Below, one piece after another: positions 24,087-40,000 of a stretch of 51,383 nucleotides of DNA (within the stretch, counting starts at the first letter, position 1; every line of letters begins with the position of its first letter). Location of the stretch: positions 682,001-733,383 of the forward strand of contig BROI01000016.1 in assembly GCA_027923505.1 (NCBI GenBank), in the 5' to 3' direction. Source of the stretch: Mayamaea pseudoterrestris. Lineage: Eukaryota. The notes beneath the pieces are model-generated. The model was given only the letters and a program-made list of their open reading frames with translations. It searched no databases and was not told the DNA's origin. Made by a program: the position numbers and the translations under genes.

Positions 24087-24290
24087 TAGCTTGTCTTGAC
24101 CTGAGAGAGCTGTGCGAAAGAGAGAGAGTGAAAGAATCGAGAAATTGAGAGAGAAAGAGCAGATTCCTTGCGGCGTCGTCAATCCGAATACTTGGCACGA
24201 GCGCGTAGAACAGGATCGTATAAGGCTCGACTGCATTGAGAGCGGTTGTTGTGTAAGAAAGGACTTGCGGAAAGCGAGGTATTCACTATC

Positions 24291-26450
24291 ATGGTTGCGA
24301 TTACTGCGGAAGCTTTGCAGCTTCTCTGCACGAACGTTTTCGGACGAGACATCCAAGAAGCGTTCTTGTTTTGGAATGTAACCACCACTACCCAGATGTT
24401 GAGATTGACCAAGGAGCAACTTGAAGCCCCCTACTGGGTCGACAGAGCCGCCATCCAAGCTGGCGTTGAGCAAGAAGAAGGCGCGCAAGACGACGACGCG
24501 CCGCCGGGCGACGAGCCGGCCGAGGAACCGGCCGAGGAACAAGCAGCCGCCGCCCCAGAACGATACGAAACGACATTAGCACCAGTCTACGTGAACCTTG
24601 TCCTCGATGCATGCGAATGGTTTACCATGCACGACGGACCCCCGAACACCAAGAAGTGGGCGTTGCTTGATTTAGGCAAGCTCGAGCGATACCAAAGTGT
24701 GCTCGCCGAACAAGAAATCGCGCGTAAGCGTGAAGAAGGATACTATGTCCTCGAGTCCAAGAAGAAGCAAGCCGAGCTACTTGCTAAGCAACTTGAAAAT
24801 GAGACTATGAAGGCCGAGAAGGCCGAAAAGGAAGAAGATGCCAAGGGTCGTTTCTCGAACCTCAAGACGAAACGAGACTACAAGGACTACAAAACGTTCC
24901 AACATCCCCACGCGTGGTTGAGTTGGAGCGCGTCTACCAAGGCAATCGCCAAGCTCCATGGCTGTTCTAACGTGCTCGACAGCAAGTACGTACCAGTCAC
25001 GGAAGAAGAGAAGGAAGAGTTCGAGAATCAGCAAATCTTCATGTACACTGCGTTTCGCAATTGTCTCGAAGTCCCTGGATACCAGTCGCTCCTAATGAAG
25101 TATGGCGACAAGTCTGACGCTCAGAGCGTCTATCGCGAACTCGCGACCAAGTTTGGTTCCGGCGAGTTAGCTACCATCCAAGCGAACGAACTGCAAGCCA
25201 AGCTTGCGACGATTCGCCTAGATTCGACCTGGACGAAAGGACACTACAAGTTCCTAAACTACATCGAACAGCTCATGAAGAATCTCGAAGAGTTCCGTCC
25301 TGGAGTGACGGATGACAAGAAGAAGTACTACTGGCTCCGAGCTGCAGTGGAGGGCGACGAAGAATTCGGCCCCACGTGCACGACGTTCGACCAGCACCTG
25401 CAATTTGAACGACGACGCATCATCAGTGCAAATGGTGACCCAGACGCCGTCGTGACGGAAGATTATGACTATCTTTTCGACATGTTGTTGCAGCAAGCCT
25501 TGCGCGTCGACAACAAGAACGCCAAGCTGAATAAGGGCAAGAAGAACGCCGACCGCCAAGCGAACAACGCGAACACTTCCGGGCAAGGACGTGGTAACGG
25601 GCGCGGTTCCGGCCGTGGCGGAGGACGCGGCGGTCAAGGCGGACGCGGCGGTGGACGAGACGGTGGACGTGGCACTCAAGTGAGCCGCGGTTCCGGAGGA
25701 CGAGGCTCTTCCGCGCCACTACCAGCAGCCGGTACGCAAGCGCATCGGGAACGATTCCCTGGTGATTATCTGAACTTTGAACAGTTGTTGCAGAACCCCT
25801 GGTCGTACATGTCGTACGAACGACTCGGCCGACTTAACGAGGACGAATACGCTCAGCTCATGGCTCGACGCGAAGCCGTCCCAAGACCCGCCACGACAAG
25901 ACGCGCGAACAATGGCAACCGCGCGAATAACCAGCAGTCACAAGCGGCTGCATCGGTGCCTGGTACAATCTTGTATCAGAATGACGCTGTCTCGATCGCC
26001 CCGACGACAGCCACTCAAGGTGCACCGGATGACATGATTAGATCTTTCCTTGCGAACGCCGCGTCGTCTCGCACTCAAGCTGCGAATAACACCCAGCAAG
26101 AGTTTATGGGAAGCGACGGCCGTCGGTACCGCGCAATGGTATCGGTGCGCTACACTGTGAATCGAGCTCGCAGCAACGAGACCCGCCAAGGATCGCTGAT
26201 TGACGGCGGTGCGAACGGTGGACTCGCTGGAAGCGATATGAGAATCTTGAGTACTACCAACCACACGTGTAACGTGACAGGTTTGAGCGACCACACGGTT
26301 CGCGACCTCCAAGTCGGAACTGGCGTCGCATTGATTGAGACTCGGACTGGACCCATTATCGGTCAGTTCAACCAGTATGCTTTGTACGACGGTGCTGAAT
26401 CCATTCATGCACCATCGCAGCTCGCTCGTTCGCCATCTGATCGACGACGC
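24291..26450 (+). CDS. Gag-protease of family A copy 2 (frameshifts at about 26425 into the rest of pol)
   Basis: Long ORF 24246-26627 with the first ATG at 24291. Contains an RGG-rich region and the protease motif LIDGGANG. Confidence 0.88.
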
Positions 26451-26825
26451 CGCCGCCCAGAATGGAGCACAAGCCATTGTCACCAGTTGTGGCAAGAAGA
26501 CCCCCTTGGCGATCTGAGACGGTTTGCCTCGAATGGATATGCGTCCGCCGACGAACGCAGAGTTGGAAATGTATCCGACGGTCATTTTTTCTGCGGACAC
26601 CCTTTGGGATCCGCAGGAGTGGGATAATAAATGGAACGAAGAAGAACTTGAGTTTAATCGCGCCGTCGACGAATTGGAAGAAACCCACGGTTTCGCCGAC
26701 GCCCGCATGGACGACTTCGGCGACGCCACCTACCGGAACAACATGAATTCAGTGGAACGTGTGGTGCAGTATGTCGATCGCGAATCAGGCTGATACGACG
26801 CGCCCAAGCCAATGCACGACGGATA

Positions 26826-27540
26826 ATGCCACAAGAACCTGACTACCAAGCGCTTCGACCCTACCTTGGCTACACGCCACTTGAACGAGTCAAGCGCACC
26901 ATTAAGAATACGACACAGCTTTTCCGTGCATCGGCACACACCCCATTTCGCCAACACTTTAAGTCGCGATTCCCTGCCGCCAATGTGGTTCGTTTCCATG
27001 ACGATACGGCGACAGATACCTGGTTTTCCAAGGAAGCCGCCTTTAACGACGGAATCCGCGGCCATGGCGGATGCAAGATGATGCAACTGTTCGTCGGCAA
27101 GAAGAGTCTGCTGACGAGGGGATACCCACTGAGAACCGAGAGTGACATGCCCATGGCGCTCGAAGACTTCATTCGAGACATTGGCGCCCCCGACTTGCTC
27201 ATTAGCGATAACTCGCGAGTGCAGCTCGGGAAGCAAGTTGAAACCTTGTTGCGATTCTACGCGATTCGTGACCAACAGAGCGAGCCCGGATACCAGAACC
27301 AGAACCCTGCCGAGCGTCGCATCCAAGAAGTCAAGTCATCAGTCCAGAACATCATGAACCGTACGGGCGCACCCGCTGGAGCCTGGCTCCTATGCGCGCT
27401 GTACGAATCGCCTTATTCAACAATCTGGCGACCGAGTCCTCAACTGGAAGACCCTACTGAAGCCGCCTCAACCGAGTACCGAATTTCGCCGCCCTGCAGT
27501 TCAAGTTCTGGTGGGAACGAGTCTGTACAAGGACCGACAT
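26826..27540 (+). pseudogene. Integrase core of family A copy 2, truncated
   Basis: DDE residues in TATDTW, LISDNS and QNPAERRI. Confidence 0.88.
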
Positions 27541-27987
27541 TCGTCTTTAATCTATCCAGAGCGAAGCCATCGTCAAGGCCAAGACGTCGCTGGATAGTCT
27601 CGTTATCGTTGGCTTGAGCTAGCGATGGAAGTCTGTCCATGCCGAGAGTCGGCCGACTGATCGTCATGGATGCGTTAGCCAGCGAATGATGCACATAGAG
27701 GTTCAAAAAAGTCAATGTCGATCCAACACGGGAGTTTCAGGAGAGAATGCAGTAAATCTTTGTTCGTTTGTTTGAATTGCTGGCTGTCTTCTTTTGTTGA
27801 TCGCGAAATGGTCGTCAGTTGTCGACGCAAAGCATGAGAATGACTTATGCTGTCTATTGCATTCAAAATTGATCGATGATCATGAAATGAGACATAACAA
27901 GAGATTCGGCAGACCTCAAGATAGGTGCAAATGATCAGATCAGTAGCTGCTGATGTAACATCAGCAGCCAGCCGCAAAAACGGATAG

Positions 27988-28125
27988 TGAAGATTTCCAG
28001 CGACAAACAATGCACCCAGAAAAGTCCCACGAGGATATGGAGACTTTAAGAGCAACAAAAGAGCAAAGGATCGAGAAATAAAGGAGCTGGGTGAGATGAA
28101 TAACTGCCATTTATCACTGTTCAAT
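27988..28125 (-). repeat. Degraded 3' LTR of family B
   Basis: Gapped match to 35652-35830 (TGAAGATTTCCAGCGACA, ATGGAGACT, TTAAGAGCAACA, AAGAGCAAAGGA). Confidence 0.7.
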
Positions 28126-28199
28126 AATTACGCCAATTAATCATTTTGACCCAATTCGAGATATCAGGGTGAAGTAGGCCTGTAAAGTCTGTGTACACA

Positions 28200-29552
28200 G
28201 ATCAAATTCACCGCGTTCATGGCTCCAGAACCAATGGAACCCAACCAGAAAGTACTTAGTGCGGTTTGTCAACTTGTGGTTGATGGCGAAAGTAGGGCCT
28301 TGATTGTCTCAAAGACGCGAGCTTGATGGAAGTCTTGAGAGGAGATAAATCTAGAACGGCAATCACCTCGGATAGAATTCGCTTTAAAGGAAGTAAAAGT
28401 CTTGAGGGCAAAAGGAGAGCGTGTACTGTGGACGAGAGCGAAATTTCGGTCTGCAACTGGGATTTCCACACTAACGGACAACCAGACAGCAAGATGATAC
28501 CCAGTGTGGGATTGAACTGAGACTGGCAATTTCTGGTTCCCGCGAGAGACCGCAAAATCAGCATCAACGAGAGACTAAGGCGAGAGTTCGTTGTTTGAAA
28601 GTGCCATGATACGGCAGCTCTTGAGGTAGCGCACAATCATTTTAACTGCAGCGCATGACCGCTTTGGAGCAAATTGAACGGGCAGTTGACGACAGATGCA
28701 TGTGGGGCGAGTATTGATTGACAAGTAAAGGAGCATCCCGGGACAATGACCAGCAGCCCCAAGTTTCTTTTGTCTGGACATGGGGATCCGAGCCGAGAGC
28801 CAAGAGACTTGTTGTGCCAAAGGATTAGCATGAGTCATATTTAGCAATCTTGTCAATCAATCCTGGCTGGTCAAGGTAATGGTATTTTCTGTCGTCGTTG
28901 GCCCATTTTAATTCCAAGGTATTCACAACATGTTTCCTTGGCAAGTCAAAACAGATCGCGAATTTCAATGAAGGACGACAAGTTTGGATGTCTTAGCCGA
29001 AAAGATGGAATCGTCCACAAAGCAACACATCACCAAGTTTTTTCCAATAGAACAAACAAGGATCAGTAGCTTTGTTTCAGACCATGAAAGGGTGCTCAAA
29101 TGTTCAAACAGGGTACAGTCAATCCAAAATCTAGGAGGCGCAAACACATGCCGGGAGTCTTTTACTCGTGTGAAAACGAGTGGAGATGGATCCACACTGG
29201 GTCATGGAGTCGGCCTGACAAATGCACTGGCAAAATCCGTGGAGCAAGCATACCAGTTAAGGTTAAGGGCTAGAATCAACATCAATCGGATGGTCGACCA
29301 TGCCACAACTGGTGCGTACGTTTCAAAGTCGCCTTCTTGCAGATCACCTCGAACGCAGTAGCGAGCTTTGTACTTCTTAATTGTCCCATCTGGGGAGCGC
29401 TTATAAACACCCAAGTACCTGGAAGAATTTTTGGTCTTGGCTTCCGACTTGGGGACTTCAGTCCATGTTCCTTTGACACCAACGATTGAATCTCCTCGGC
29501 GGCAGCTTGCCAATGCTTTACATGAGCATGATCAGCCATGGCTTGATCCCAG
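28200..29552 (-). pseudogene. RT and RNase H remnants of family B
   Basis: KYKARYCVRGDLQ, TYAPVVAWSTIRL, DFASAF, FVDDSIF and CPLVWKSQLQTEISLS in shifting frames. Confidence 0.85.
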
Positions 29553-32500
29553 TTAAAGTATCTGATCCGATGCGGCAGCCTTGTAGAGGGCTGGAGCAGC
29601 AATATTAAAAGCAGCAAAGTAGGAGACGAAACTGGCGTCACAAACCGACTCGATTTGGGCTCCGGAGGCGTCGTAAGAGAGGCGAGATGGCTTCTTAGTG
29701 GCGCGACTGGAACGGCGAGTACTTGGCGTAGCTGTTGGAGCTGTAGGATTCTCCCTCGGAGACTCATTGTTGGAGACCGAAGCAGGCGATGGATCAGCCG
29801 GCAGCTCCCTCAGAGGCGAAGATTCTTCTTGCACTTCAATTGGAAGCTCCCTCGGAGACTCGGGCTCCCTCGCTTGGGCGGGCTCTTGGCTTGGTGCCGA
29901 CGAAGGCGGCGCTGGCAACTCAGCAGGAGGAGGGACTTGCAAATCTCGAGGAGGAGCATGGCGCTCAAAAGCATCCCGAACGGCATCCGCTCGAGTGGAG
30001 ACGGCAGGCTCAGCCTCAAATTCAGCAGAAGCTATGGCTTCATCTTCATCATCCAATGGGATATATTGAAGAGACGTGTTTCCAAAGAGATTATACCACT
30101 CAGTGGAGGCAAAATCCGGCATTTGCGACTCAGTTACAGCCACAGTGGCAAACCAATCATCAAAGACGACGTGAAACTGCGGCGTAATGGCGCCCGAGTG
30201 CGGATTTAAAACCAAAGGAACGGAGCTAGCATGGGCTTCACTCATTCCAACAAAGATGCAGCGATGGGACCGCGGCTGCCAGCGGGGCAACTTGTGGCCG
30301 TCCGATATCGTTTTATCAAGGACATATACTGGAGACCCCCAAACGTGCAAGTCATGGAACTTGGAATGGGGCCATCGAGTGCGAGTAAAGATATCTTGGG
30401 GAGAAAGGCCGCTCTGAAGATTAGGGACCTTGTTCCAAAGATACACGGCATGCTTGGTGACCATGGGCCAAAGTGAAACATCGGCGACATTGGGCCAATG
30501 GATCTTAGCATGCATCAACATGGCGCGCGAAATAGACATAATGGTCTGTATGCAACGCTCGGCAATCCCATTATGATGGTGAGCGCCGACTCCAGCAAGC
30601 GCACTGACTTGATGGAAAGTTGTAAGATGCTTGGAGAAGCCTTGTGACGTAAAGGCACCACCATTGTCGGAGAGATACTCAAGGGGAATGACTCCAACAT
30701 CACGGCAGAACAACTCGAAAGCTTCTTTAGATCTTAATGTATCATCCGTATTTAAATGCTGTTGCAGCTCAAGATGAACGTAGCCGGATGCATGATCAAC
30801 AAACACACAACCGCCAGTGTTCATGGCAGTTTCCTTTGTCTTGCCACGCGAGAAAAAAAGGCGTCCTTTTGTAGAGCAAACAAAGTGATCAACGGAGATG
30901 CGCTGGCCTGGGAGAAGATTGTCTCGGCGCAAAGCATCAACTCGGTCTTTAACAACTTTGGTTGTTTGACCAGGAGATGAACGCACTCGCTGCTTGGCGT
31001 ACATGCAGGCAGTGCACTTGGGACACGGCTGCAAAGTTGCGCAAGCTCTATGGAGACGGCGTGCCGACTCAGAGTTAGCAAGCGTTCCACCACGCATTAG
31101 AAACTGAATGGTTTTAAAGTTCAAATGGCCAAGACGGAAATGCCAACGGAGCAATTCCTTTTCAGCCTCAGACAAGTTGGTATTCGAGCTGGCGACGGTG
31201 GAGCTTTGGCTTGGCGGTGGTCTTGGCTCACGGCGAGGGCGTCTTGTGGGCGCACTTGCTCCTCCATCACTTGGAGGACCATTGGCGGGCGGTGGACCGC
31301 GCGGCGGCTGCTGAGCAGGAGCTGGACCAGGACCAGGACCAGGCGGAGGCAAAGGCGCCTCGCCAGCACTGTAAGAACTTGGCATGCCACTGAGATCGTA
31401 TGCGATAGCAGTCGGCAAGTTGGTAAGAGGATCAATTGGAGCCTCAACACCATCATTTGTTATAGAGCCATCCTTGTGGACTCGCTCCACAGAACCGCTC
31501 AAGTAGATAGCTCGGCGATCGGCATATATAACTTCATTTGGATACTGTTGCAGCAATCCTGGCATACTCAACAGACGCACTTTGGCCTCAGGAATCCAGT
31601 ATGCTGGAACCTTTACTGTGCGAAGCATGCCTCCATTGTCAAGAAAGCTCCAGGCGACAAACCCTTTGCCTTTAACTCGACCATCTTTGAAGAGACCATT
31701 CAAACGAACAGTTGGCGCTGGCTGAATGGGGCCAACAAAGTCGTCGCGGCTTGGCGAAATGGAGATGCTTGCTCCTGAATCCCAGATTACTGGCAGCATC
31801 TTGTCCTTCTCCTTGCACGGTGGTGTTGGTGGGGACTTGCGATATTTATTGTTAAAGAGAGATTGGCTCAATGTTGGTATATTCGGCTGGGCAGATTCCA
31901 AGTGGGACGCTTGGTAGGCTTCTCCAAAATCGTCGAAATCTGAAAAATCCCCAAACACAACAGACGCAAACACCTCTTGTGGCATTGGATCAATTGATTG
32001 AATTGAAGCTTGCGGCACTGGTGGAGGCAAAGGCGTTGGCGCCTTGTCAGTTTTAAAGCGGAACGGTTGACGCCGACGGGCTTGCCGCTCCCGATCTGCG
32101 TGAGCTATACTGAAGTAGGTGACTCCATCAGGCGTCGTAATCAATGGATCATTACGCCATTCTCGATTGCGAATCCGATGGCGCTCTTCATATTGATAAA
32201 GAAGCGTATCATTTAGCCATGCGTTCCAATCTTCCTCTTGGGCGCGAAGGCGGTCACTGATTATATTCTCGTAAGCCTCATTAACTTGATTGGCAGCTTG
32301 AGCTTGTCGAAAGGTTGAACGGAGAGCCTCAGCGCGAGCATTAATTACCAAGGGCGGAGCAACGGCAACTGCGTGGGCAGTCCGAGGGCGCCATGGTTGG
32401 TCGCGAGCTGGGCGACGGCGCGGCACTTGGCTTTGGTCTGGGCCTTGGCGAGGACGCTGGCGATGGCGCTGCGCTTGGTTTGGACTTGGGCGTGGGCGCT

Positions 32501-34319
32501 GTCCATGGTTTCGACCATTGCGATGATGCTGCTGAGCACGGTTTCTTGGTTGGACTCGAGCTGGGCCTCGTCTTCGAGCATGCAAATGCCATGGTTCTCC
32601 CTCGTTGGAAGGCAACCTGCATAAAATGGCGCGCAAGAAGGCAAGGAACTTGGCTTGGAGACGCAAAAACCAAGGGATTACCCGCTTCCGAAACCGACGG
32701 AGACGGTGAAACCGATGGAATAAGAAACGGAACCGTTGGAACCTTGAAACAGAGCGACGATTGCGGCGATCTTGATGGATATAGGCGCGACGATGGCGTC
32801 GATCCGAATGCCGAGGAGGCTTTGCAGGTGGCTTCCAAAATATCAAGGCAATGGCGACACTAGTGAGCGTCAACCAAAGAATCCCAGGCACCATCAAACG
32901 CCAATGATGGTAAATCAAACGGCCGATGACATGGACAAGAGAAAGGCTCTCGCAACCAACTGTCATGATGGAATGGCCAAGTTGATCAGCCAAATGGAGA
33001 CTCTCGCCAAGGGCGGCTGTTGTATTGGCAAACTGCTGGGCCACAGCAGTATGCAAAGCCTGAGTCTCAGTTGCGTTGTTTGAACAAACAAGAGATGAAA
33101 CAGTTCGAGTCACAGTGAAGAATGCCTCACTTAAAGTCGAATGGCTCACAGGCAGGGCCGAAGCTGGGCGCTTAACCAATCGAGCTGCTGAGCACGAATT
33201 CACCAAGCAAATCAATCCAATCATAAGCACAAATGAAAGTGCACTTGGAGAGAGACTGCGAGAGCGACGGTAAAGCACCTTGTTTGGCTTGGTAGGGCGC
33301 TTGGCAGATGGCTCGGAGCTGGGGCTCGAAGGAGGCGTCCAGGCTGGAGCAGCAGGATTCAACTTAGCAATCTTTGCAGGGGGAGCGTTAACACCACTTG
33401 CAAGCTCCCTCGCTTGAATAGCTGCATTCCGAGCAAACTGCACATCAGACTCATAGCGATCATCACTAGGAGAGCGCTCAATATTGCAGAGCTTGGCGAC
33501 GATGGCCGCTGGCGTATGCTCATCAATGATCATTGGATCATCGGCAACAATGGAAGCAATGGCATCCTCGCCATCCACCATGGCAGACGCAATCTCGTCA
33601 ATGACAGCTTCTTCACCTTCTTCAAGAGAACAATCGTCATTGGCTAAAGCAAGGGCTTTGGCGTCAGCGGCGGCTTGGGCGCAAACTGATGGATCCTCGA
33701 TAGCTAGATAGGCAGCTGGCGTATCAAACCAAGCAAGATGACCACCATTGGGAGCAACAGCCGGAGCAGTTTTACTTCCAGTGTGCTCGTCAGTGCCATG
33801 GTTAAGTTGCCACTTGTTGCAATGCGCGCACCAATGGTAGGTCTTTCCCCCTTTTTCAATGGTAGATGGCTGCGATGCTGAAGGAGCAATTCGCCGCCAT
33901 GGCGCATGGTAGTGATGGACATCGTCAATGGCCTTTGACGGAGCACCCTTTCCACTCTTTGGAGCAGTCTTGGGCTTCCCTTTTCCATTTCCTTTGGGAG
34001 CGCCGCGCTTGTTGCTAGTTTTCACGGTCGTTGCCTGTGGGCAATCGCGCTGAAAATGGCCGGTCTTATGGCAAATGTGACAAGTCTTCTCCTCCTTTGC
34101 TCCCCTTCCGTTTGCCTTGGCTTTGTCAAGTTGAACAACGCCTCCAAAGGCGGGCGGAATGGCAGTCTTGTCGCGCGGATTCTTGGCGGGAACCCAGTCA
34201 TTGGCCGCATGAATCTGGCGGTAAGCAGTATTAGCTACCTGCGCCAAATCCTTTAATGTTAGATGCTCACGCGTCATGTAAGCATCCTGATCCGTTGGAG
34301 TTGTGTCATATTCGAGCAA
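29553..34319 (-). CDS. Family B polyprotein: Gag C-terminus with zinc knuckles, membrane module, protease and integrase (1588 aa open)
   Basis: CHICHKTGHFQRDC, YHWCAHC..H..H, VIWDSGAS (D at 31781), WHFRLGH..CTAC, ISVDHF / SDNGG / NGIAE, VVFDD. Confidence 0.92.
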   Translation of the reverse strand: MLEYDTTPTDQDAYMTREHLTLKDLAQVANTAYRQIHAANDWVPAKNPRDKTAIPPAFGGVVQLDKAKANGRGAKEEKTCHICHKTGHFQRDCPQATTVKTSNKRGAPKGNGKGKPKTAPKSGKGAPSKAIDDVHHYHAPWRRIAPSASQPSTIEKGGKTYHWCAHCNKWQLNHGTDEHTGSKTAPAVAPNGGHLAWFDTPAAYLAIEDPSVCAQAAADAKALALANDDCSLEEGEEAVIDEIASAMVDGEDAIASIVADDPMIIDEHTPAAIVAKLCNIERSPSDDRYESDVQFARNAAIQARELASGVNAPPAKIAKLNPAAPAWTPPSSPSSEPSAKRPTKPNKVLYRRSRSLSPSALSFVLMIGLICLVNSCSAARLVKRPASALPVSHSTLSEAFFTVTRTVSSLVCSNNATETQALHTAVAQQFANTTAALGESLHLADQLGHSIMTVGCESLSLVHVIGRLIYHHWRLMVPGILWLTLTSVAIALIFWKPPAKPPRHSDRRHRRAYIHQDRRNRRSVSRFQRFRFLFHRFHRLRRFRKRVIPWFLRLQAKFLAFLRAILCRLPSNEGEPWHLHARRRGPARVQPRNRAQQHHRNGRNHGQRPRPSPNQAQRHRQRPRQGPDQSQVPRRRPARDQPWRPRTAHAVAVAPPLVINARAEALRSTFRQAQAANQVNEAYENIISDRLRAQEEDWNAWLNDTLLYQYEERHRIRNREWRNDPLITTPDGVTYFSIAHADRERQARRRQPFRFKTDKAPTPLPPPVPQASIQSIDPMPQEVFASVVFGDFSDFDDFGEAYQASHLESAQPNIPTLSQSLFNNKYRKSPPTPPCKEKDKMLPVIWDSGASISISPSRDDFVGPIQPAPTVRLNGLFKDGRVKGKGFVAWSFLDNGGMLRTVKVPAYWIPEAKVRLLSMPGLLQQYPNEVIYADRRAIYLSGSVERVHKDGSITNDGVEAPIDPLTNLPTAIAYDLSGMPSSYSAGEAPLPPPGPGPGPAPAQQPPRGPPPANGPPSDGGASAPTRRPRREPRPPPSQSSTVASSNTNLSEAEKELLRWHFRLGHLNFKTIQFLMRGGTLANSESARRLHRACATLQPCPKCTACMYAKQRVRSSPGQTTKVVKDRVDALRRDNLLPGQRISVDHFVCSTKGRLFFSRGKTKETAMNTGGCVFVDHASGYVHLELQQHLNTDDTLRSKEAFELFCRDVGVIPLEYLSDNGGAFTSQGFSKHLTTFHQVSALAGVGAHHHNGIAERCIQTIMSISRAMLMHAKIHWPNVADVSLWPMVTKHAVYLWNKVPNLQSGLSPQDIFTRTRWPHSKFHDLHVWGSPVYVLDKTISDGHKLPRWQPRSHRCIFVGMSEAHASSVPLVLNPHSGAITPQFHVVFDDWFATVAVTESQMPDFASTEWYNLFGNTSLQYIPLDDEDEAIASAEFEAEPAVSTRADAVRDAFERHAPPRDLQVPPPAELPAPPSSAPSQEPAQAREPESPRELPIEVQEESSPLRELPADPSPASVSNNESPRENPTAPTATPSTRRSSRATKKPSRLSYDASGAQIESVCDASFVSYFAAFNIAAPALYKAAASDQIL

Positions 34320-35542
34320 GCTTTCAAGCCAATGACATGCTTAGCTTTCCAAGCTTTCATTTCGTCAATGAACTCCTCGCCGCCAGTGTTTTCAAGGCAG
34401 CGATCGCCTCCTGCTTGGAGAAGGTTTTTCAACACTTTGGTGGTCAGGGAATGCGGATACTGACCCGCATTAATCAATGGCTTTGCTTTGATAATAAGCG
34501 CATCCATGTAGGTGGTAATATTTTGGCCTGGCTCCGCTTGCGGCTTGTAGGCGGCGACTTCTTGTTCCACTTTCAAGTACCAGTCGCGGGATTGGTGAAG
34601 AATCATCTCCATTACTTGGAAATAGACGACACAGAAGCTATCCTGGGCGCTAGCGCTGGTATAATGATCCAGGCGCGTGCGAAGCTCCTCGTTGCACGAA
34701 TTCTTGAAGAATCTAATGAGATCCTTGTCGTTGCCGCGATCATATTCGTCGTAGCTGGCGACGAAAGGAGCAATGGCTTCCTTGACCGACTCAATGCTCT
34801 CGAACAGCGAATAATATTGAAGGAAATTAACCAACTTGGTCTTGGTTGGATCGCGCGGGTCGATGACGTAACAATATGTGTCGTTGCCACAGAGCTCCGC
34901 CTGTTCCTTAAAGAGCATTTGTTGATGCTGCAAGTTGCATGTCAACGTAAACTTCGTTGGAAGTCCTTTCTGCCGCTCTTGTTGCTTTGAATCGTTCAAG
35001 GGACGAAGCATCAACGAGTTGCTTGGCTTGGCTCCGTCGGCGACTGGCTTTTCCAATCCCGACCAATCCACATTTGGTGGACCGCCGCCCATGCATGCCG
35101 CTCGCTCCTTGGTGGAGATTTGGACGACAGTGCCCATGATGGGTTTGTTTGGCGTGTACACTTGGACAGGTGCGCGATGCTGACGTAGCATCTCTTTGGC
35201 GATTTCGGAATCCATGTGTTTGGCGATGGCTTCGTCGACGACACGCTGTCGGTCACGCGCGGCTTCTTCCATCGCCTGACGAACGGCGTCATCGATGGCA
35301 GCCTGCTGCTCTTGCTTGGCTTTGAGCTGAGCAGCAATCTTCATCCGCTGCTGTTGTTCGTTATACAGCTGGCGAATTTCATCCTCGGCGTCTCGCTCAG
35401 CTTGGGTGAGCTTGGCGCGTCGTTCACGTTCCATCCGATTGATCATTTCGGTTCGCTGGACTTCGGCAGCTTGTAGGAGCGTGCGCTGGTCATCCGTCAA
35501 CTGGACGGGAGGCCGTGGTGGTGTTGGCGTTCCTGGCGCCAT
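34274..35542 (-). CDS. Family B Gag N-terminal part (continues by frameshift into the 29553-34319 ORF)
   Basis: 422-aa ORF starting about 90 bp after the PBS, with a coiled-coil N-terminus, overlapping the knuckle-bearing ORF. Confidence 0.82.
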   Translation of the reverse strand: MAPGTPTPPRPPVQLTDDQRTLLQAAEVQRTEMINRMERERRAKLTQAERDAEDEIRQLYNEQQQRMKIAAQLKAKQEQQAAIDDAVRQAMEEAARDRQRVVDEAIAKHMDSEIAKEMLRQHRAPVQVYTPNKPIMGTVVQISTKERAACMGGGPPNVDWSGLEKPVADGAKPSNSLMLRPLNDSKQQERQKGLPTKFTLTCNLQHQQMLFKEQAELCGNDTYCYVIDPRDPTKTKLVNFLQYYSLFESIESVKEAIAPFVASYDEYDRGNDKDLIRFFKNSCNEELRTRLDHYTSASAQDSFCVVYFQVMEMILHQSRDWYLKVEQEVAAYKPQAEPGQNITTYMDALIIKAKPLINAGQYPHSLTTKVLKNLLQAGGDRCLENTGGEEFIDEMKAWKAKHVIGLKACSNMTQLQRIRMLT

Positions 35543-35633
35543 GGTAACTCGAGTGTGATTAAAGCTTTGGCTTCTGTCTTAGTTGCTTGCTTGGGCGTGC
35601 ACTCCCTTGGCAAGACGACGACTGCAGAAGAAC

Positions 35634-35649
35634 CGTGGGGCTCGTAACC
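35634..35649 (-). promoter_or_regulatory. Primer-binding site of internal (half) initiator tRNA-Met type
   Basis: Minus strand reads GGTTACGAGCCCC 2 nt after the LTR end. Resembles the GGTTATG(G/A)GCCC site of half-tRNA-primed copia elements. Confidence 0.72.
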
Positions 35650-35651
35650 AG

Positions 35652-35947
35652 TGAAGATTTCCAGCGACAGCAATGGCTGCACTAGCAAATGCTTCTCACT
35701 CAATAGGATTGAATGGAGACTGTTATTAAGAGCAACAACAAGAGCAAAGGACTCGAGTAATTGCAACTGCTACAACAACGAAGGCGTTGGTGATTAACTG
35801 AGAGGATTTAATTAACTGCTATTGATTTACCTCGCTCGCCCATCGTGGGCATCACGATTGCTCGTCCACGATGCCGTTGGGGCGTCAACTTACACATATA
35901 GTAAGAGAGGTGCTTGCACCTCGGTAGGAAGGTAGGATACACCTTCA
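35652..35947 (-). repeat. 5' LTR of family B (outer end tentative)
   Basis: TGAAG...CTTCA inverted ends, adjacent to the PBS and similar to 27988 onward. No TSD found. Confidence 0.6.
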
Positions 35948-36386
35948 ACTTCGACTCGGATCGAGCAAGTTGTAAAACCGCTAAGACATGTCGCGTTGTC
36001 GGGTGGTTAACATTGATACTATAATGGTATTAACCATCTACTACTATCATCATAAGCTAGTTCTACAGCTCTCAAGCATCAGTTGCTGCTGTAGAGCTTT
36101 CGAAGGATGACTCTGTCCTTCTGAGGATTGGATTTGAACAAATAGCTAGCTTTCACTCCCAATCGGACCGTTGACGAGAAAACCATAAACCATAAGTTTC
36201 AAGTGATATCTTTTGGATTGCGCGTGACGCGCTCATCGCTTCATCGCTCCGCTCGGCCATGCCCATAACAGCAGCGACGGCGGAAGAGAAACGAGCAAGC
36301 GGGGAATTAATAAACAAACTTTGCGTCTTTGATCAAATACTAGCGGATCGAAATCGTTCATCTACTTATTCTAGGCGCGTCACAAA

Positions 36387-37042
36387 ATGCCGACAGCTCA
36401 ACAATCAAAGCGCGAGAAAGCGCGCCTCAAAGAACAGCGTAATTGTGAACACTTGCGACTCATGAGCCGAGGATACGTAAAGTCATGGCCAAGCTTTTAC
36501 AAAAGACTCAAAGCCTACAAGGGAAAATATGGAATTATGGCCGTCCCGTCATCATCTCGGACGGATTCAAGTCTTTACCAATTTGTCATGAGTCAGCGGA
36601 ACGCTTTCGTCCACGGCACCCTATTGCCAAGTCGACTAATCAAGCTGGAACGGCATGGTTTTATCTGGAACATTCGAAAGGCAGAAGAAGCCTGGCAGAA
36701 GAAGGCAAAGGAGCTCTCAGATTACAAGGACAAGGTTGGAAATTGCAATGTTCCGCTTGGCGAAAGTCACGACCATGCGGCTTTGGCACTATGGGTTTTC
36801 TTGATGCGGTACAAGTACAAGAACAAGACTCTCGAGGAGAATCGAATCCACCAGCTCAACAAGATTGGAATTGACTGGGACTGGATGCCAAAGTTGGCGA
36901 GCGGCGACGCTCACTGCATGGAAGGTACTGAATCGCAAAGTTCAAGTGACGAGTCGGATGACGATGAATGTGCGAGTTACACGGAGAGTGGTACCGACGA
37001 CGATAGCGAGTCGAGTGGTTCAAAATATGCCTTTGATGCCAG

Positions 37043-37075
<33 letters not shown>

Positions 37076-40000
37076 AAGTCGTGGCGATGTGGAGATTTTA
37101 GCAGGGGAGGATGTCACCGGAGGAGCAACGAGAGGCGCCATGACGGGCTCTGACGATGGCGACTTGAAACAATCTAGCAAGCGTCATCGCTCTGACAGCT
37201 CGAGCTCCAATCCAGAAAAAGTCAAGGCGAAGTCACCCTACGAGGCGCCGAACCTTGACGCTAGCGATGAACCTCGGCGCATGAAGAAGGTGCGCCATGA
37301 GCATGCTGCTGGAATAGCCAATGACGAGGTGAAGGAGCAGGAAGAGGAGGCGTTGGCCGATCCAGTTTATTCTAATCCAGAGCTGAATCTTACTCGCTGG
37401 TTCGAAGATGCCGTCGAAGTTCCAATCTTACGAACAGCTAACGGCGGTCATGCTATCACCGGATCGCCGTCGACAGAGTCATGTGCCTTTTCGCAACGTC
37501 TATGGTTCGAAAATTTTGACCGTCTCGCGGCCCACATAGAGGAGCAGGGGCACATGCATGACCTTTCCACACCGCTTCGACGTTGGTCTAAACGCCAGCG
37601 TCTTTATTTACGAAATGGCTGCTTAATGACACAACAAGTTCTTGCTTTGGAAGAGCTTGGATTCATTTGGTTTCTGGACTTGGAGAAGGAAGAGCATTAT
37701 TGGCAGCATAATTATCAGATCCTGCTTACCTGCCGAAAACAATGGGAACAGTGCTTGCGCCAACACGTAATGGAGGACTTTCTTACTCTGGAGTTCCGAC
37801 TTTGGGCCGTTTTGCAGAAAGCTCAGTACAAGACAAGAACTCTTAGTAGCACGCGGACGGATCAGTTGAATGCCATAGGATTTTTGTGGAATTTCAGCGA
37901 CGCGTGTGATAAACCCTGGGAAAACGAAAAACTAGAGGAAGAAGAACAGCCCGAATATGGCAACATGGATTCAGTGCGTCAGGATGTAGCGATGCCGCTT
38001 GCAACTACGTCTGCTGCAGCCGACGAGCGATTCGTCCGAGACGCAAGCAGTGGTGACGGTCACTGTCGTTGTTACAAATGCATGAATGCGCAAGTAGCAC
38101 TGCGTGATGACATGTGCACCGATTGGAAAGTCGCACATAATAAACTGAAAAGGAAGAATACAAAGCTGCAGGCCGAGATTTTGGAGCTCAAGAAGCAGCA
38201 AAGACCGGTCGTCGCAGCAACAGCCGAACAGCGTGCTTCACAGCAATCGTCTTCGGACGAAAAAGCAGCACTCAAGGTTGAGATACGACTGCTCCAAGCC
38301 GACAAAGCAGCCTTGCAGGATAAGATTACTGATTTGGAAGAAGCAGAGAACACGTCAGTCCAATCGGTAAGCGCCATGCGAGCAAAGATTCGAGATATGA
38401 GATTTAAGATTTATGATTTGGAAAAGCAAGTAAGTGCTCAAGCGAAATGGCCTACCACCGACGACGTTAACATTGACGATGACGTATTTTACGTCCCTTG
38501 GGATGGAGTATCCTTGACCCGCGGAAATGCAACTCTACAGATTTCATCGCCAGCCGCTCATCCAAGAGTCGATACGAATCTAAGCCCATTGAAAGCGGTG
38601 GTTCTTCATTACATTCAAGCTTACTTGAATGTTAAAAACAGTCGTGTTGGTCGGCTAGAGCTGGCGCGAATTCAACCGATGACTCACGAGAACCTCCGTC
38701 GATTTGGGGTGGAATATGTCAAAGCGTCACCGACATTCAACGTACCAAAAGCTTGCACAGCGCAGCGGGTGATTCATTACCTGACTAGCCAACTGGCCAA
38801 CGCTATACGCAAAAGCGGGCTGCCGGTCCAGCCTGCAATAAAAGGGAGCAGAATGTTGGATGCTTGGACGTTCTTTGCAGAGGATAAAGTACACGACTTT
38901 CTCAAAGTCATGCATGCGTCATCAGAAGGTGCGGGTAGACCTTGGCGGCTAGCGTTGGAAGATGAACATGAAGAGGCATCAGATGAGGCGTGGGGCAAGT
39001 ACGTCGCTCGACTTTTCCTTTGCTGCTCGCTTTGCGAGATGTGCCAAAATCAGTCTTATGAAAGAATCTCGATCTGTCATGCGTGCGCAGCTGAACGGCG
39101 GAAGATAGCCAGTCAGGAGGTGAGTCGTTTTGTTACAGAAGTCCGATCAATCTTTAAAAACAAGTTTTTTAGAACCAAAGAGGATACAGTTTTCCGAACC
39201 ATGCTTGACGATATCATCCCTGGATCGGACGAGGATCTAGTATTCAATGCTGTCGTTGCGTTGATGGCTGCGATTCAGCTGACAAATCTAAAGCGTATTT
39301 CCGCTGCGACGAAGGGATTTGCGCCAGATGATCCACCAAAAAAACACATGGACAAAGTATTGGCATCTGCAGGCGAAAAAATGTTGAAGAATCGTTTGTT
39401 AGAGGTGCGGGGTGCACGTGCGAAGGTCAATGAGCCGACCATCGAAACCGACCAGACACTTTTCGCATTATACAAGGAAGCCACAAGTGGCGAGAGGCTT
39501 GGATGGAATAATAAATCGGTCTTTCGCATTTTCGACGGAGACGACTCGTGCGTCGTGGCAATTTTGTAAGTATGGTAGCGAGTGTTTTACATTTGTCTTC
39601 GTTGGCTCGCTAATCGAGCTCAATCGATTCGAATTTCGCAGCAAGAAACCGCTTTAATTCCTTTCAACGATGATTGGGTCGAAAAGGCGGAAACGGAAGT
39701 GCGCCTTGCTGTACGGGCGAGCGATGCTCTTGAGGACGCTGGCCATGTAAATGCATGCCTTGACAAGCTGGGATCTTGTGGCGCCAAGGTGACCAGATAT
39801 GGCCGTTGTACCGATGAAACGTAAGTTTGGAATGCTTTTATGCAGCTTTAACTATATCAACTGATGACTTCTCTATTTTGCAGGACTGGCGAGGAAATGG
39901 TCATTATGGCAATGGAAGCTGGGCATCCATTGGACGATTGGTGTGACATGGTTTTGCGAAAATTAACTGGCGGCAAAGCGAAATTGGCTGTTTACGATCT

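Follow-up and report, generated by a model that had tools for sequence, protein, structure and literature searches.

A candidate Gag-Pol membrane anchor: a conserved hydrophobic hairpin at the Gag/Pol junction of a diatom-type copia clade

The module lying between Gag and the protease of a copia element in Mayamaea pseudoterrestris is probably a membrane-insertion unit at the Gag/Pol junction, acting as a two-pass anchor that tethers Gag-Pol to endomembranes. The element was found in the window, by which we mean the whole stretch of 51,383 nucleotides that was analysed, and the anatomy of the module, its conservation and its position relative to recoding sites were read from the sequences directly. 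As proposed here, the unit would consist of two (sometimes three) hydrophobic helices arranged as a hairpin, followed by a polybasic stretch, a YPxRLR motif, a spacer and then the protease. On leaving the ribosome the hairpin would insert into an endomembrane, most likely the ER, with the upstream Gag and the downstream PR-IN-RT remaining cytosolic. Gag-Pol and the RNA under translation would in this way be tethered to the membrane, where particle assembly and protease activation would be concentrated.

The copia element of the window and its membrane module

The window element is a copia-type (Pseudoviridae) LTR retrotransposon, as judged by the Ty1/copia criteria: a Pol domain order of PR - IN - RT/RNase H, an RT of the RVT_2 type and a Gag with a CCHC knuckle. 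Residues are numbered from the upstream stop, which places them 7 above the numbers used in a preliminary description of this DNA. The features of the element were as follows.

29553..34340, (-) strand: main stop-free frame of 1595 aa, with the C-terminal part of Gag, the membrane module, protease and integrase, up to the start of RT
34274..35578, (-) strand: N-terminal part of Gag, a 434-aa stop-free frame that differs here from the frame of the main ORF
34041..34082, (-) strand: CCHC zinc knuckle of Gag, C-x2-C-x4-H-x4-C at aa 87-100
33783..33833, (-) strand: second Cys/His motif, WC-x2-C-x2-W...H...H, located by regex and used as the upstream landmark of the module
31767..31781, (-) strand: protease active-site motif DSGAS (aa 854), aligned with the invariant D-x-G of relatives
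30156..31205, (-) strand: integrase region, with Pfam PF13976 at aa 1046-1117 and PF25597 at aa 1328-1395
28207..29552, (-) strand: decayed RT/RNase H, interrupted by stops in frame and by four or more changes of frame

The CCHC knuckle, the DSGAS motif and the integrase domains flank the module, which lies where the preliminary description had put it, between the Gag knuckle and the protease of a copia element. PF13976 is the GAG-pre-integrase domain and PF25597 an SH3-like domain; the Pfam zf-CCHC model matched aa 85-102 with a score of 17.8, below its curated cutoff of 20.8. By tblastn, the N-terminal Gag frame aligned with residues 44-336 of the relative P0003, and the broken RT with residues 1772-2083 of the same protein, the RT/RNase H alignment jumping among frames -1, -3, -1, -2 and -3. 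RVT_2 (PF07727) was present in P0003 (9.2e-38) and was precomputed for most relatives. Five nucleotides at 34300 are absent from a 99.2% identical copy in public runs, in which Gag and the main ORF form one frame of 2006 aa. The window copy is dead, since its Gag is frameshifted and its RT broken. No direct repeats of at least 40 nt and no clear LTR pair were found in 27000-37000, the sole LTR candidate being a 113-nt match of 74% between 35650-35761 and 27986-28079.

Within the main frame, the membrane module was resolved into the following parts.

33243..33302, (-) strand: basic n-region, aa 347-366 (KRPTKPNKVLYRRSRSLSPS), with 7 K/R and 0 D/E in 20 aa
33186..33242, (-) strand: hydrophobic segment 1, aa 367-385, resembling a signal peptide, its h-region of 14 aa being followed by NSCSA
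32898..33185, (-) strand: loop of 96 aa, aa 386-481, proposed to be lumenal, with two sequons and two Cys
33069-33077 (NAT) and 33018-33026 (NTT), (-) strand: the two N-x-T sequons of the loop
32835..32897, (-) strand: hydrophobic segment 2 (TM2), aa 482-502, aligned as homologous to the last TM of the clade
32616..32834, (-) strand: polybasic tail, aa 503-575, with 25 K/R against 2 D/E in 73 aa

Hydropathy suggests that the module is inserted into a membrane. Kyte-Doolittle means over 19 residues (KD19) peaked at 2.12 in segment 1 and at 2.17 in segment 2, and a mean of at least 1.6 was reached at just these two places in the whole 1595-aa frame. A Hessa-type insertion scale gave sums of ~0.8 kcal/mol for segment 1 and ~0.1 kcal/mol for segment 2, with the next best window at 6.4. 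The run of basic residues ahead of a signal-like segment, the loop of about 95 aa with NAT, NTT and two Cys (C419 and C463) and the TM helix leading into a very basic tail had all been described before and were all recovered. The suggestion of two membrane passes, with Gag and PR-IN-RT left cytosolic, likewise agrees with the two TM-grade segments and with strongly basic flanks on the sides expected to be cytosolic. By inspection, segment 1 has the anatomy of a cleavable signal peptide, its n-region and h-region being followed by a small-x-small ending. A clade hairpin was defined here as one or more segments between the WC-x2-C motif and PR, together with a P-x2-3-W TM, a polybasic stretch and a YPxRLR-type motif. 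The window module has all of these: its two segments are TM-grade, TM2 reads 'VPGILW', in keeping with P-x2-3-W, and FHRFHRLRR in the basic tail aligned to the columns of the clade motif H.LHR.YPLRLR.

AlphaFold2 placed helices at TM1 (model residues 25-45) and at TM2, the second half of the loop forming one long helix into TM2 with a pLDDT of 87-98. An amphipathic helix had been described in the tail, and aa 557-575 were indeed predicted as a helix; its amphipathicity, however, did not stand out, since the hydrophobic moment of 0.95 was equalled or exceeded by 24.5% of shuffles (mean 0.70), and neither this helix nor that of the loop lay above shuffles at the 5% level. Pfam gave no match within the module. 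Foldseek of the module model returned 0 matches at E <= 0.001 in BFVD and PDB, a null that says little because the model is mostly long helices.

Conservation of the hairpin across the clade

The module is a conserved, regular part of a large diatom-type copia clade and no private insert. The protein sample held 121 sequences (120 relatives and the window ORF), with both landmarks present in 96; in 95 of these 96 the upstream anchor was the second Cys/His motif, which is near-invariant in alignments A1 and A3. At least one segment with a KD19 of 1.6 or more was found in the linker of 91/96 relatives, as against ~10.8/96 after shuffling of the linker residues, and a segment of at least 2.0 in 62/96, as against ~1.9/96. 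Per 1000 aa, the linker held 4.44 segments (147 in 33,104 aa) and the rest of the same proteins 0.38 (59 in 156,528 aa), and peak hydrophobicity in relatives was 2.0-2.8 over 19 residues. The longest charge-free stretch was also tried as a discriminator and was uninformative, with a median of 33.5 aa in the linker and 31 aa in the rest of the proteins.

A metagenome scan with A3 yielded 80 loci, 28 of which had the PR motif and at least 250 aa upstream in one ORF. A hydrophobic segment lay upstream of PR in 25 of these 28, compared with 1/28 in an equal length downstream. The three misses differed in kind: L005 ends inside the last TM, L063 has weaker aromatic-rich segments together with the motif, and L018 is truly without the module. 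The module is dispensable in some lineages, because it is missing from two clade loci, L014 and L018. The preliminary description had proposed a search of stramenopile copia polyproteins for TM pairs at this position, and had held that a module unique to this copy and evolving neutrally, such as a captured host fragment, would tell against it; the segments at the same place in relatives and metagenome loci show that the module is neither unique to this copy nor a captured host fragment. All homologues found were retrotransposon polyproteins and not host genes, and the relatives with names come from the diatoms M. pseudoterrestris and Fistulifera solaris.

Homology searches gave a mixed yield. 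HMMER against 1.84 billion representatives found P0122 (3.7e-14, the match continuing into the protease) and P0123 (1e-9). Within 122 fetched proteins, jackhmmer reached 91, always at the same position and with matches that cover the tail region, composition-driven drift being possible with hydrophobic and basic segments. Word-based protein searches found nothing with window aa 330-620 at E <= 0.001 among proteins of 877-2792 aa, and nothing with the 4-sequence alignment A2 among proteins of 798-2275 aa, each of which is weak evidence. A search of the ESM Atlas with the module gave nothing usable, and a metagenome scan with A2 gave 242 pattern matches, 0 of them confirmed.

Alignment indicates homology of the last TM, and of the basic tail behind it, throughout the clade. 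In a 52-sequence alignment the TM2 Pro was invariant and the Trp at least 90% conserved, as were R174, R178, R208 and R212 of P0001. Profiles of the 52 sequences anchored on this Pro were nearly charge-free from ~-60 to +11, with a moderately hydrophobic loop between the peaks; K/R/D/E were absent at the sampled offsets 0 to +10, and K/R rose to 0.33-0.56 per site between +32 and +48. Net charge over the 30 aa that follow the last segment was +3.3, and the flank before the first segment was, family-wide, slightly acidic (-1.2) and not basic. The hairpin region was also helical in the P0118 model. The inter-segment loop had a family-wide median of 29 aa and no sequon enrichment was found between segments, at 0.67 sequons per 100 aa versus 0.58 after and 1.25 before. 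At a KD of at least 1.4, three segments were called in 20/96 relatives and one only in 28/96. A simple two-pass topology may thus not hold in all relatives, because an odd number of true passes would place Pol in the lumen.

Recoding sites, selection and rival readings

Two other lineages place the hairpin relative to the start of Pol. L072 and L076 have a conserved GGGAAAC heptamer and a TAG stop, and after a -1 shift the hairpin follows within ~12-20 aa; in both L024 and L025 the hairpin comes after a TGA that is in frame and conserved. Because nothing but a -1 frameshift site or such a TGA stands directly ahead of it in these lineages, the hairpin is assigned to the start of Pol. This position points to a Pol-anchoring role rather than to cell-to-cell transfer, the other possibility raised in the preliminary description.

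Evidence that the hairpin is under purifying selection is thin and comes from one suitably diverged pair, L002 and L003, in which omega was ~0.16 for the hairpin (pN 0.234, pS 0.673, 57 codons) and ~0.14 for the tail. For L072/L076 the hairpin omega was 0.44 on 24 codons, and for L024/L025 dS was saturated, with a hairpin pN of 0.44 equal to that of the spacer. The pair L003/L004 was set aside, its hairpins being near-identical (1 change) and its tail spoilt by a 1-nt indel in an A-run. Over the whole ORF, the window copy differed from its 99.2% twin at 19 synonymous changes in 1140 sites and 18 nonsynonymous in 3645 (dN/dS ~0.3). The dN/dS check proposed in the preliminary description was answered in part only, with constraint seen in L002/L003, but with 4 nonsynonymous changes and 1 synonymous change in the module between the window and its 99% twin, a count compatible with neutrality; one of these differences replaces a loop Cys (C419R). 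We also observed that the sequence of the hairpin changes fast while its hydrophobicity stays.

That the module has no function, and is either a spacer under neutral drift or a piece of host sequence, captured and hydrophobic by chance, is the reading we consider least credible of all. It could draw on the dead state of the window copy, the 4 nonsynonymous changes and 1 synonymous change in its module, the two loci without a module and the empty Atlas and word-based searches. It is at odds with the recurrence of segments at one position in relatives and metagenome loci under strong shuffle and downstream controls, with the invariant Pro and the conserved Trp and Arg clade-wide, with the low hairpin omega in L002/L003, and with homologues that are all retrotransposon polyproteins. 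A monotopic hairpin, which would dip into the cytosolic leaflet of the ER or of lipid droplets and act as a tether without lumenal exposure, is unlikely. Presumably resembling oleosin-type or reticulon-type hairpins, it would suit the nearly charge-free stretch of ~70 aa with its invariant Pro, the moderately hydrophobic inter-peak loop, the short median distance between segments and the lack of sequon enrichment, and both ends would be cytosolic whether one, two or three segments are called. Against it, KD peaks of 2.0-2.8 over 19 residues are what true TM helices typically show, and the polar 96-aa loop, the two conserved sequons and the signal-like segment of the window subfamily make sense only if the loop is lumenal.

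A viroporin-like product, in which the excised hairpin would oligomerise into a channel or membrane-remodelling unit that aids particle maturation or release, seems to us very improbable, and marginally more so than the fusogen reading discussed below. Two close TM helices and a basic stretch within a polyprotein are the usual layout of viroporins, of which p7, 6K and 2B are examples in RNA viruses. That layout is present here, and the fast evolution of the hairpin with its hydrophobicity kept would also fit; the conserved Pro/Trp, however, and the length and conservation of the basic motif suggest a tether that binds on the cytosolic side, and not a pore. Pseudoviridae are moreover described, in the ICTV profile (PMC8515867), as lacking an extracellular phase.

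The bolder reading of the preliminary description had seen in the module an Env- or fusogen-like unit with the layout of reovirus FAST proteins. Spelt out, this would be a small type I glycoprotein, set free by a signal peptidase cut after segment 1 and a cut of the element protease in the tail, and active in membrane fusion or in carrying particles between cells or gametes. Such a role is very unlikely. Its favourable points come from the layout of the window subfamily, with a small-x-small signal, a sequon-bearing ectodomain, a TM, 5 K/R in the first 15 aa after it (KPPAKPPRHSDRRHR; the FAST polybasic criterion asks for at least 3) and a predicted tail helix, and from a precedent, the FAST-like sORF2 of MDG1-group Ty3/gypsy elements, as described in a preprint (bioRxiv 10.1101/2025.03.14.642691). 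Most defining features of FAST proteins were nevertheless lacking. In place of a separate small protein (~60-210 aa) with its own start, the module lies inside a frame of 1595 or 2006 aa; it has no N-terminus of its own and no MGxxxS/T myristoylation motif; and its ectodomain of 96 aa compares with ~30 aa in FAST/sORF2, by the same preprint. FAST proteins have a single TM, N-out/C-in; two TM-grade segments were seen here, and a single-TM product would arise if signal peptidase cut after segment 1. The features of an Env (an env ORF downstream of pol, an SU/TM organisation and a fusion-protein fold) were not found either. The amphipathic moment is not above shuffles, neither Foldseek nor Pfam gave a match, the loop is short and hydrophobic across most of the clade, elsewhere in the clade the hairpin is simply the first part of Pol past a recoding site, and the named relatives are walled unicellular diatoms.

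Known systems, the window subfamily and implications

The two-pass anchor has parallels in layout in the polyproteins of positive-strand RNA viruses, in which a capsid is followed by a signal-like small-x-small segment and a membrane hairpin lies just upstream of the protease. In flavivirus polyproteins, a capsid anchor follows the capsid, and the NS2B and NS4A hairpins adjoin the protease and tether it to the ER. Those polyproteins, however, have true glycoprotein genes downstream, whereas here it is PR-IN-RT, which must stay cytosolic, and no sequence or fold relation of the module to them was found, Foldseek having covered BFVD and PDB. Among Pseudoviridae, Ty1 offers co-translational ER targeting: according to Doh, Lutz and Curcio 2014 (PMC3945221), translation of Ty1 RNA involves SRP and nucleates the site of particle assembly. 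Ty1 Gag is reported to enter the lumen and return. Ty1 is not known to have a TM hairpin, whereas in the present clade targeting would fall to a hairpin built into the start of Pol.

According to the ICTV profile (PMC8515867), Pseudoviridae are purely intracellular, with a Gag of CP and NC and a Pol of PR-INT-RT-RH. A membrane protein has so far been ascribed to copia-type elements in one case only, that of the Sirevirus env-like ORF, a third ORF downstream of pol and confined to plants. The module differs from it in lying in frame between Gag and PR, upstream of PR. In MDG1-group Ty3/gypsy elements (bioRxiv 10.1101/2025.03.14.642691), sORF2 has its own ORF, of 63-107 aa and upstream of gag; it carries an N-terminal myristoylation motif, one TM and an ectodomain of ~30 aa, and is tied to cell-to-cell transmission. 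Like sORF2 and reovirus FAST proteins, the module is a small membrane unit in which a TM leads into polybasic juxtamembrane residues and then into a cytosolic tail; unlike them, it lies in frame inside the Gag-Pol of a copia element and has two hydrophobic segments and a 96-aa loop. No sequence relation of the module to sORF2/FAST was found.

In its Gag-CCHC, PR, IN and RVT_2-type RT/RNase H, the element is like the CoDi-type Ty1/copia elements of diatoms (Maumus et al. 2009, PMC2806351; Llorens et al. 2009, PMC2774666). The words 'transmembrane' and 'membrane' are absent from the main texts of these two papers, and likewise from a 2025 diatom TE preprint. No description of the module emerged from full-text literature searches or from the papers on diatom copia elements. 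The hairpin at the Gag/Pol junction of the diatom-type copia clade is thus apparently undescribed, in agreement with the preliminary description.

In the window subfamily the anchor appears to have been modified. Four sequences, at 32-33% identity, represent three lineages (P0122 and P0194 are near-identical), and the reading of sequons and signal peptide rests on these three lineages. Here the first helix would have been replaced by an internal signal-peptide-like segment, with n-h-c anatomy and small-x-small ends of CSA in the window, AHA in P0194 and ANA in P0123 (aligned c-regions NSCSA, NAHA and GANA), and the loop enlarged to 96 aa with two conserved N-glycosylation sequons. Both N-x-T sequons are aligned in the window, P0122, P0194 and P0123, N99 and T101 being invariant, and a lumenal, glycosylated loop is therefore predicted. 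Host signal peptidase could cleave behind Gag, in the manner of the internal signal sequences of flavivirus polyproteins. It is conceivable, if improbable, that in this subfamily the hairpin has gone further and become a full cassette for a type I glycoprotein within gag-pol, an Env/FAST-like surface protein. Such a cassette would open with a signal peptide that is internal and can be cleaved, continue with a helical, N-glycosylated ectodomain of 96 aa and close with a TM and its polybasic tail; its release would fall to host signal peptidase together with the protease of the element. If true, a copia element would have gained an Env/FAST-like protein along a path not known from any retroelement, and might pass from one diatom cell to another in enveloped form or by membrane fusion, for instance when gametes fuse.

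A clade-wide membrane hairpin at the start of Pol, if true, would mean that the particles of these elements are built or matured on a membrane, and would link them mechanistically to the ER-dependent assembly reported for Ty1 and to the membrane-tethered proteases of RNA viruses. The glycoprotein-like variant of the window may show how an Env-like unit could arise from an anchor, and the hairpin itself gives a simple way to approach the question of how Gag and Pol might be separated or regulated in copia elements that have a single ORF.

The element and its hydrophobic module

The element lies on the minus strand of the window, and its module, situated between Gag and protease (PR), consists of a basic stretch, a first hydrophobic segment, a loop, a second hydrophobic segment (TM2) and a polybasic tail. 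Hydrophobicity is given as the 19-residue Kyte-Doolittle mean (KD19), and residues are those of the main frame.

Features of the element, all on the minus strand
34274-35578: N-terminal part of Gag, stop-free in a frame other than that of the main ORF
29553-34340: main stop-free frame, 1595 aa (ORF call)
aa 87-100: CCHC knuckle (motif)
33783-33833, about aa 170-186: second Cys/His motif, WCAHCNKW...H...H
Between the second Cys/His motif and the module: acidic, Ala-rich stretch (reading of the frame)
Before segment 1: basic stretch, 7 K/R and 0 D/E in 20 aa
33186-33242: hydrophobic segment 1, KD19 peak 2.12
Between the segments: loop of 96 aa with sequons NAT and NTT and two Cys
32835-32897: hydrophobic segment 2 (TM2), KD19 peak 2.17
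After TM2: tail of 73 aa, 25 K/R versus 2 D/E
aa 854: protease motif DSGAS
aa 1046-1117: GAG-pre-integrase domain (domain match)
aa 1328-1395: retroviral SH3-like domain (domain match)

The domain order, relatives that carry the copia-type reverse transcriptase family RVT_2 in the order PR-IN-RT, and an RT/RNase H region downstream of the main frame that in-frame stops and four or more frame changes have disrupted (tblastn with the relative P0003) together identify the element as a decayed Ty1/copia. A repeat search around it (27000-37000) found no clear LTRs. Contigs of public sequencing runs contain a near-identical copy (99.2% identity, 45 differences over about 6 kb) from which 5 nt at window 34300-34304 are missing (runs X1, X2 and X5), thus bringing Gag and the main ORF into one frame of 2006 aa, in which the segments lie at residues 766 and 881 and PR lies at 1253. 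A further, more diverged copy in X1 and X2 (record 2850-2936 nt), matched to window 32655-33205, could be aligned over the module in pieces only, with skips of 34-131 nt, indicating that, between paralogous copies, no other part is as rich in indels as the module region.

A frame of 1064 aa with three helicase-associated domains (HA, PF03457; E 5.3e-33) lies immediately upstream of the element, at 36375-39569 on the plus strand. The copia element is also adjoined by a different retroelement-like coding region at 24240-27617 (plus strand). In its frames of 795 and 319 aa there are a stretch rich in RGG, the motif 'IDGGANGG' and a part resembling integrase; they gave no Pfam match at 1e-3. An inverted, 89% identical fragment of the 3' part of this region lies at 17769-18273.

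All parts listed in the preliminary description, from the basic stretch to the tail, were found, with residue numbers shifted by 7. Outside the two segments, KD19 stays below 1.6 throughout the 1595-aa frame; on a Hessa-type insertion free-energy scale the segments total about 0.8 and 0.1 kcal/mol, compared with at least 6.4 for every other stretch of the frame. AlphaFold2 modelling of the module with the clade alignment (mean pLDDT 74.5) placed helices at both segments and rendered the second half of the loop as a single long helix continuous with TM2 (pLDDT 87-98). An amphipathic helix had also been proposed for the tail; a helix is indeed predicted there, but its hydrophobic moment does not exceed that of shuffled sequences.

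Conservation across the clade

A search of 1.84 billion representative proteins with the module alone (P0001, 247 aa) gave just two homologues, namely P0122 (E 3.7e-14, 31% identity), a protein that continues into the protease motif, and P0123 (1e-9, 34% identity); word-based searches of length-restricted protein sets gave no match at E <= 0.001. For the whole ORF there are 186 relatives, most of them polyproteins around 2000 aa long, and the named ones belong to two diatoms, Mayamaea pseudoterrestris and Fistulifera solaris. We scanned 120 listed relatives together with the window ORF (121 proteins), 96 of which had both landmarks of the linker, the WC-x2-C motif and PR. In 91 of these 96 the linker held at least one segment of KD19 >= 1.6, compared with about 10.8 of 96 when linker residues were shuffled, and in 62 of 96 segments reached 2.0 or more (about 1.9 shuffled). 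Segments were twelve times denser in the linkers (147 in 33,104 aa) than elsewhere in the same proteins (59 in 156,528 aa). Their position is fixed, with medians of 45 aa between the WC motif and the segments and 243 aa between the segments and PR.

An independent sample of 80 metagenome loci, found with a clade alignment, yielded 28 usable loci, in which the PR motif is preceded by 250 aa or more of the same ORF. A TM-grade segment was present upstream of PR in 25 of the 28, and in one of 28 over an equal length downstream. Among the three misses, L005 is cut inside the last TM and L063 has weaker, aromatic-rich segments with the basic motif present, while the module is truly absent from L018 (linker of 239 aa), as it is from the short linker of L014 (118 aa). 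Both L014 and L018 have WC-x2-C and PR, and apparently either lost the module naturally or represent a lineage in which it was never present. The module is confirmed far beyond chance, and is not unique to the window copy.

An iterative HMM search from the window module, a procedure open to composition-driven drift, converged on 91 of 122 fetched proteins, and the polyprotein position of the significant match did not vary. In an alignment of 52 sequences TM2 had an invariant Pro (in the window, that of VPGILW), and the Trp four residues past it and four Arg of the tail were conserved at 90% or above, giving the core consensus AP.LW ... PR..RR ... H.LHR.YPLRLR. In a profile anchored on this Pro, hydrophobicity peaks first between -60 and -40 and again between -4 and +11, where the sampled offsets 0 to +10 have no charged residue. 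The link joining the peaks is moderately hydrophobic and almost devoid of charge, and further on K/R amount to 0.33-0.56 per site over +32 to +48. Distant lineages, 31-35% identical in PR-IN to the typical clade member P0118, retain hairpins and motif variants such as RYPRQYHLRLR. The AlphaFold2 model of P0118 has three helices over the hairpin, at moderate confidence, and folds the second Cys/His motif as a small beta structure (pLDDT 75-91). This motif, W-C-x2-C-x2-W ... H ... H, about 60-80 aa past the CCHC knuckle, is nearly invariant in the clade (anchor in 95 of 96 proteins with both anchors) and has no Pfam match.

The window subfamily was aligned as the window module with P0122, P0194 and P0123 (32-33% identity), four sequences that amount to three lineages as P0122 and P0194 are near-identical. 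Here segment 1 is built in three parts like a cleavable signal peptide: the n-region is basic, the h-region measures only 12-14 aa and the c-region has a small-x-small end (CSA, AHA, ANA). Both sequons are aligned as N-x-T, and WKPP follows TM2, in all four sequences. Family-wide, the region between the segments is short (median 29 aa) and shows no sequon enrichment, so the glycoprotein-like loop is a feature of the subfamily and not of the clade. Judged from these alignments, the window subfamily is a remodelled version of the clade module.

Position at the Gag/Pol boundary and selection

Most relatives have a single ORF. In the metagenome loci L072 (1033-1083) and L076 (1795-1845), 71% identical in nucleotides, a conserved GGGAAAC heptamer directly precedes the gag stop TAG, and translation continued in the -1 frame gives ...GKLEGHRY.DWSVYA and then the hairpin; the heptamer looks like a programmed -1 frameshift site. 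L024 (2666-2730) and L025 (1348-1412), 74% identical, share an in-frame TGA between gag and pol (...GGAWNPV*G...) with the hairpin about 30 aa after it, which suggests stop-codon readthrough. Since the hairpin in these recoding lineages would be on the Gag-Pol product only, the module is most readily understood as the N-terminal portion of Pol.

Selection was estimated by the Nei-Gojobori method on pairs of metagenome loci. For L002/L003 the hairpin gave an omega of about 0.16 (pN 0.234, pS 0.673, 57 codons), with pS near saturation and a cautious bound of pN/pS = 0.35; values were 0.14 for the tail, 0.10 for Gag and 0.04 for Pol. In L072/L076 the hairpin gave 0.44 (24 codons), the tail 0.22 and Pol 0.105, and in L024/L025 dS was saturated and hairpin pN (0.44) equalled that of the spacer. 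Thus the hairpin evolves fast in sequence while retaining its hydrophobic character, and selection is seen in part, codon-level constraint on the hairpin being clear in one pair only. Between the window and its 99.2% copy, the 37 listed ORF differences divide into 19 synonymous and 18 nonsynonymous (dN/dS about 0.3); in the module there are one and four (including C419R), too few to read further and compatible with neutrality.

A putative membrane anchor and its alternatives

According to the ICTV profile (PMC8515867), Pseudoviridae encode Gag (CP, NC) and Pol (PR, INT, RT-RH), have no extracellular phase, and carry an env-like third ORF in plant sireviruses only. The word 'transmembrane' is absent from the main texts of the founding diatom CoDi papers (PMC2806351, PMC2774666) and of a 2025 preprint, and full-text searches on copia, Pseudoviridae and diatom polyproteins gave no account of such a module. 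As far as searched, the module is a membrane unit conserved in a copia clade and not previously described.

The module resembles internal signal or anchor sequences and the protease-adjacent TM hairpins of RNA-virus polyproteins. Our most likely reading of it is a two-pass membrane anchor at the Gag/Pol junction. The main rival is a monotopic hairpin, associated with the membrane without two passes. Segment number at KD >= 1.4, which is three in 20 of 96 relatives and one in 28 of 96, and a slightly acidic flank upstream of the first segment family-wide, argue against the simple picture.

The preliminary description had gone further, reading the module as an Env- or fusogen-like unit. Its membrane-anchor part is supported; a fusogen is unsupported, though it keeps a low probability for the window subfamily. 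In function the closest precedent is the FAST-like small TM protein sORF2, encoded by Ty3/gypsy elements of the MDG1 group (bioRxiv 10.1101/2025.03.14.642691), and the module fails most of the defining features of sORF2 given there. A FAST- or Env-like fusogen is less likely than the anchor, as are a viroporin, which would make the hairpin a channel or membrane-remodelling unit, and a neutral spacer, a reading that has against it the conserved position of the segments and the constraint in L002/L003.

Under the two-pass anchor, the hairpin would enter a membrane during translation, that of the ER being the likeliest; for Ty1, of the same virus family, PMC3945221 offers a precedent for ER-linked assembly. 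Gag and PR-IN-RT would remain cytosolic, with the polybasic YPxRLR region at the cytosolic face. For the window subfamily this predicts a glycosylated loop on the lumenal side, and signal peptidase might cut behind Gag. Gag-Pol and the RNA under translation would be tethered to the membrane by the anchor, where assembly and protease activation may be concentrated.
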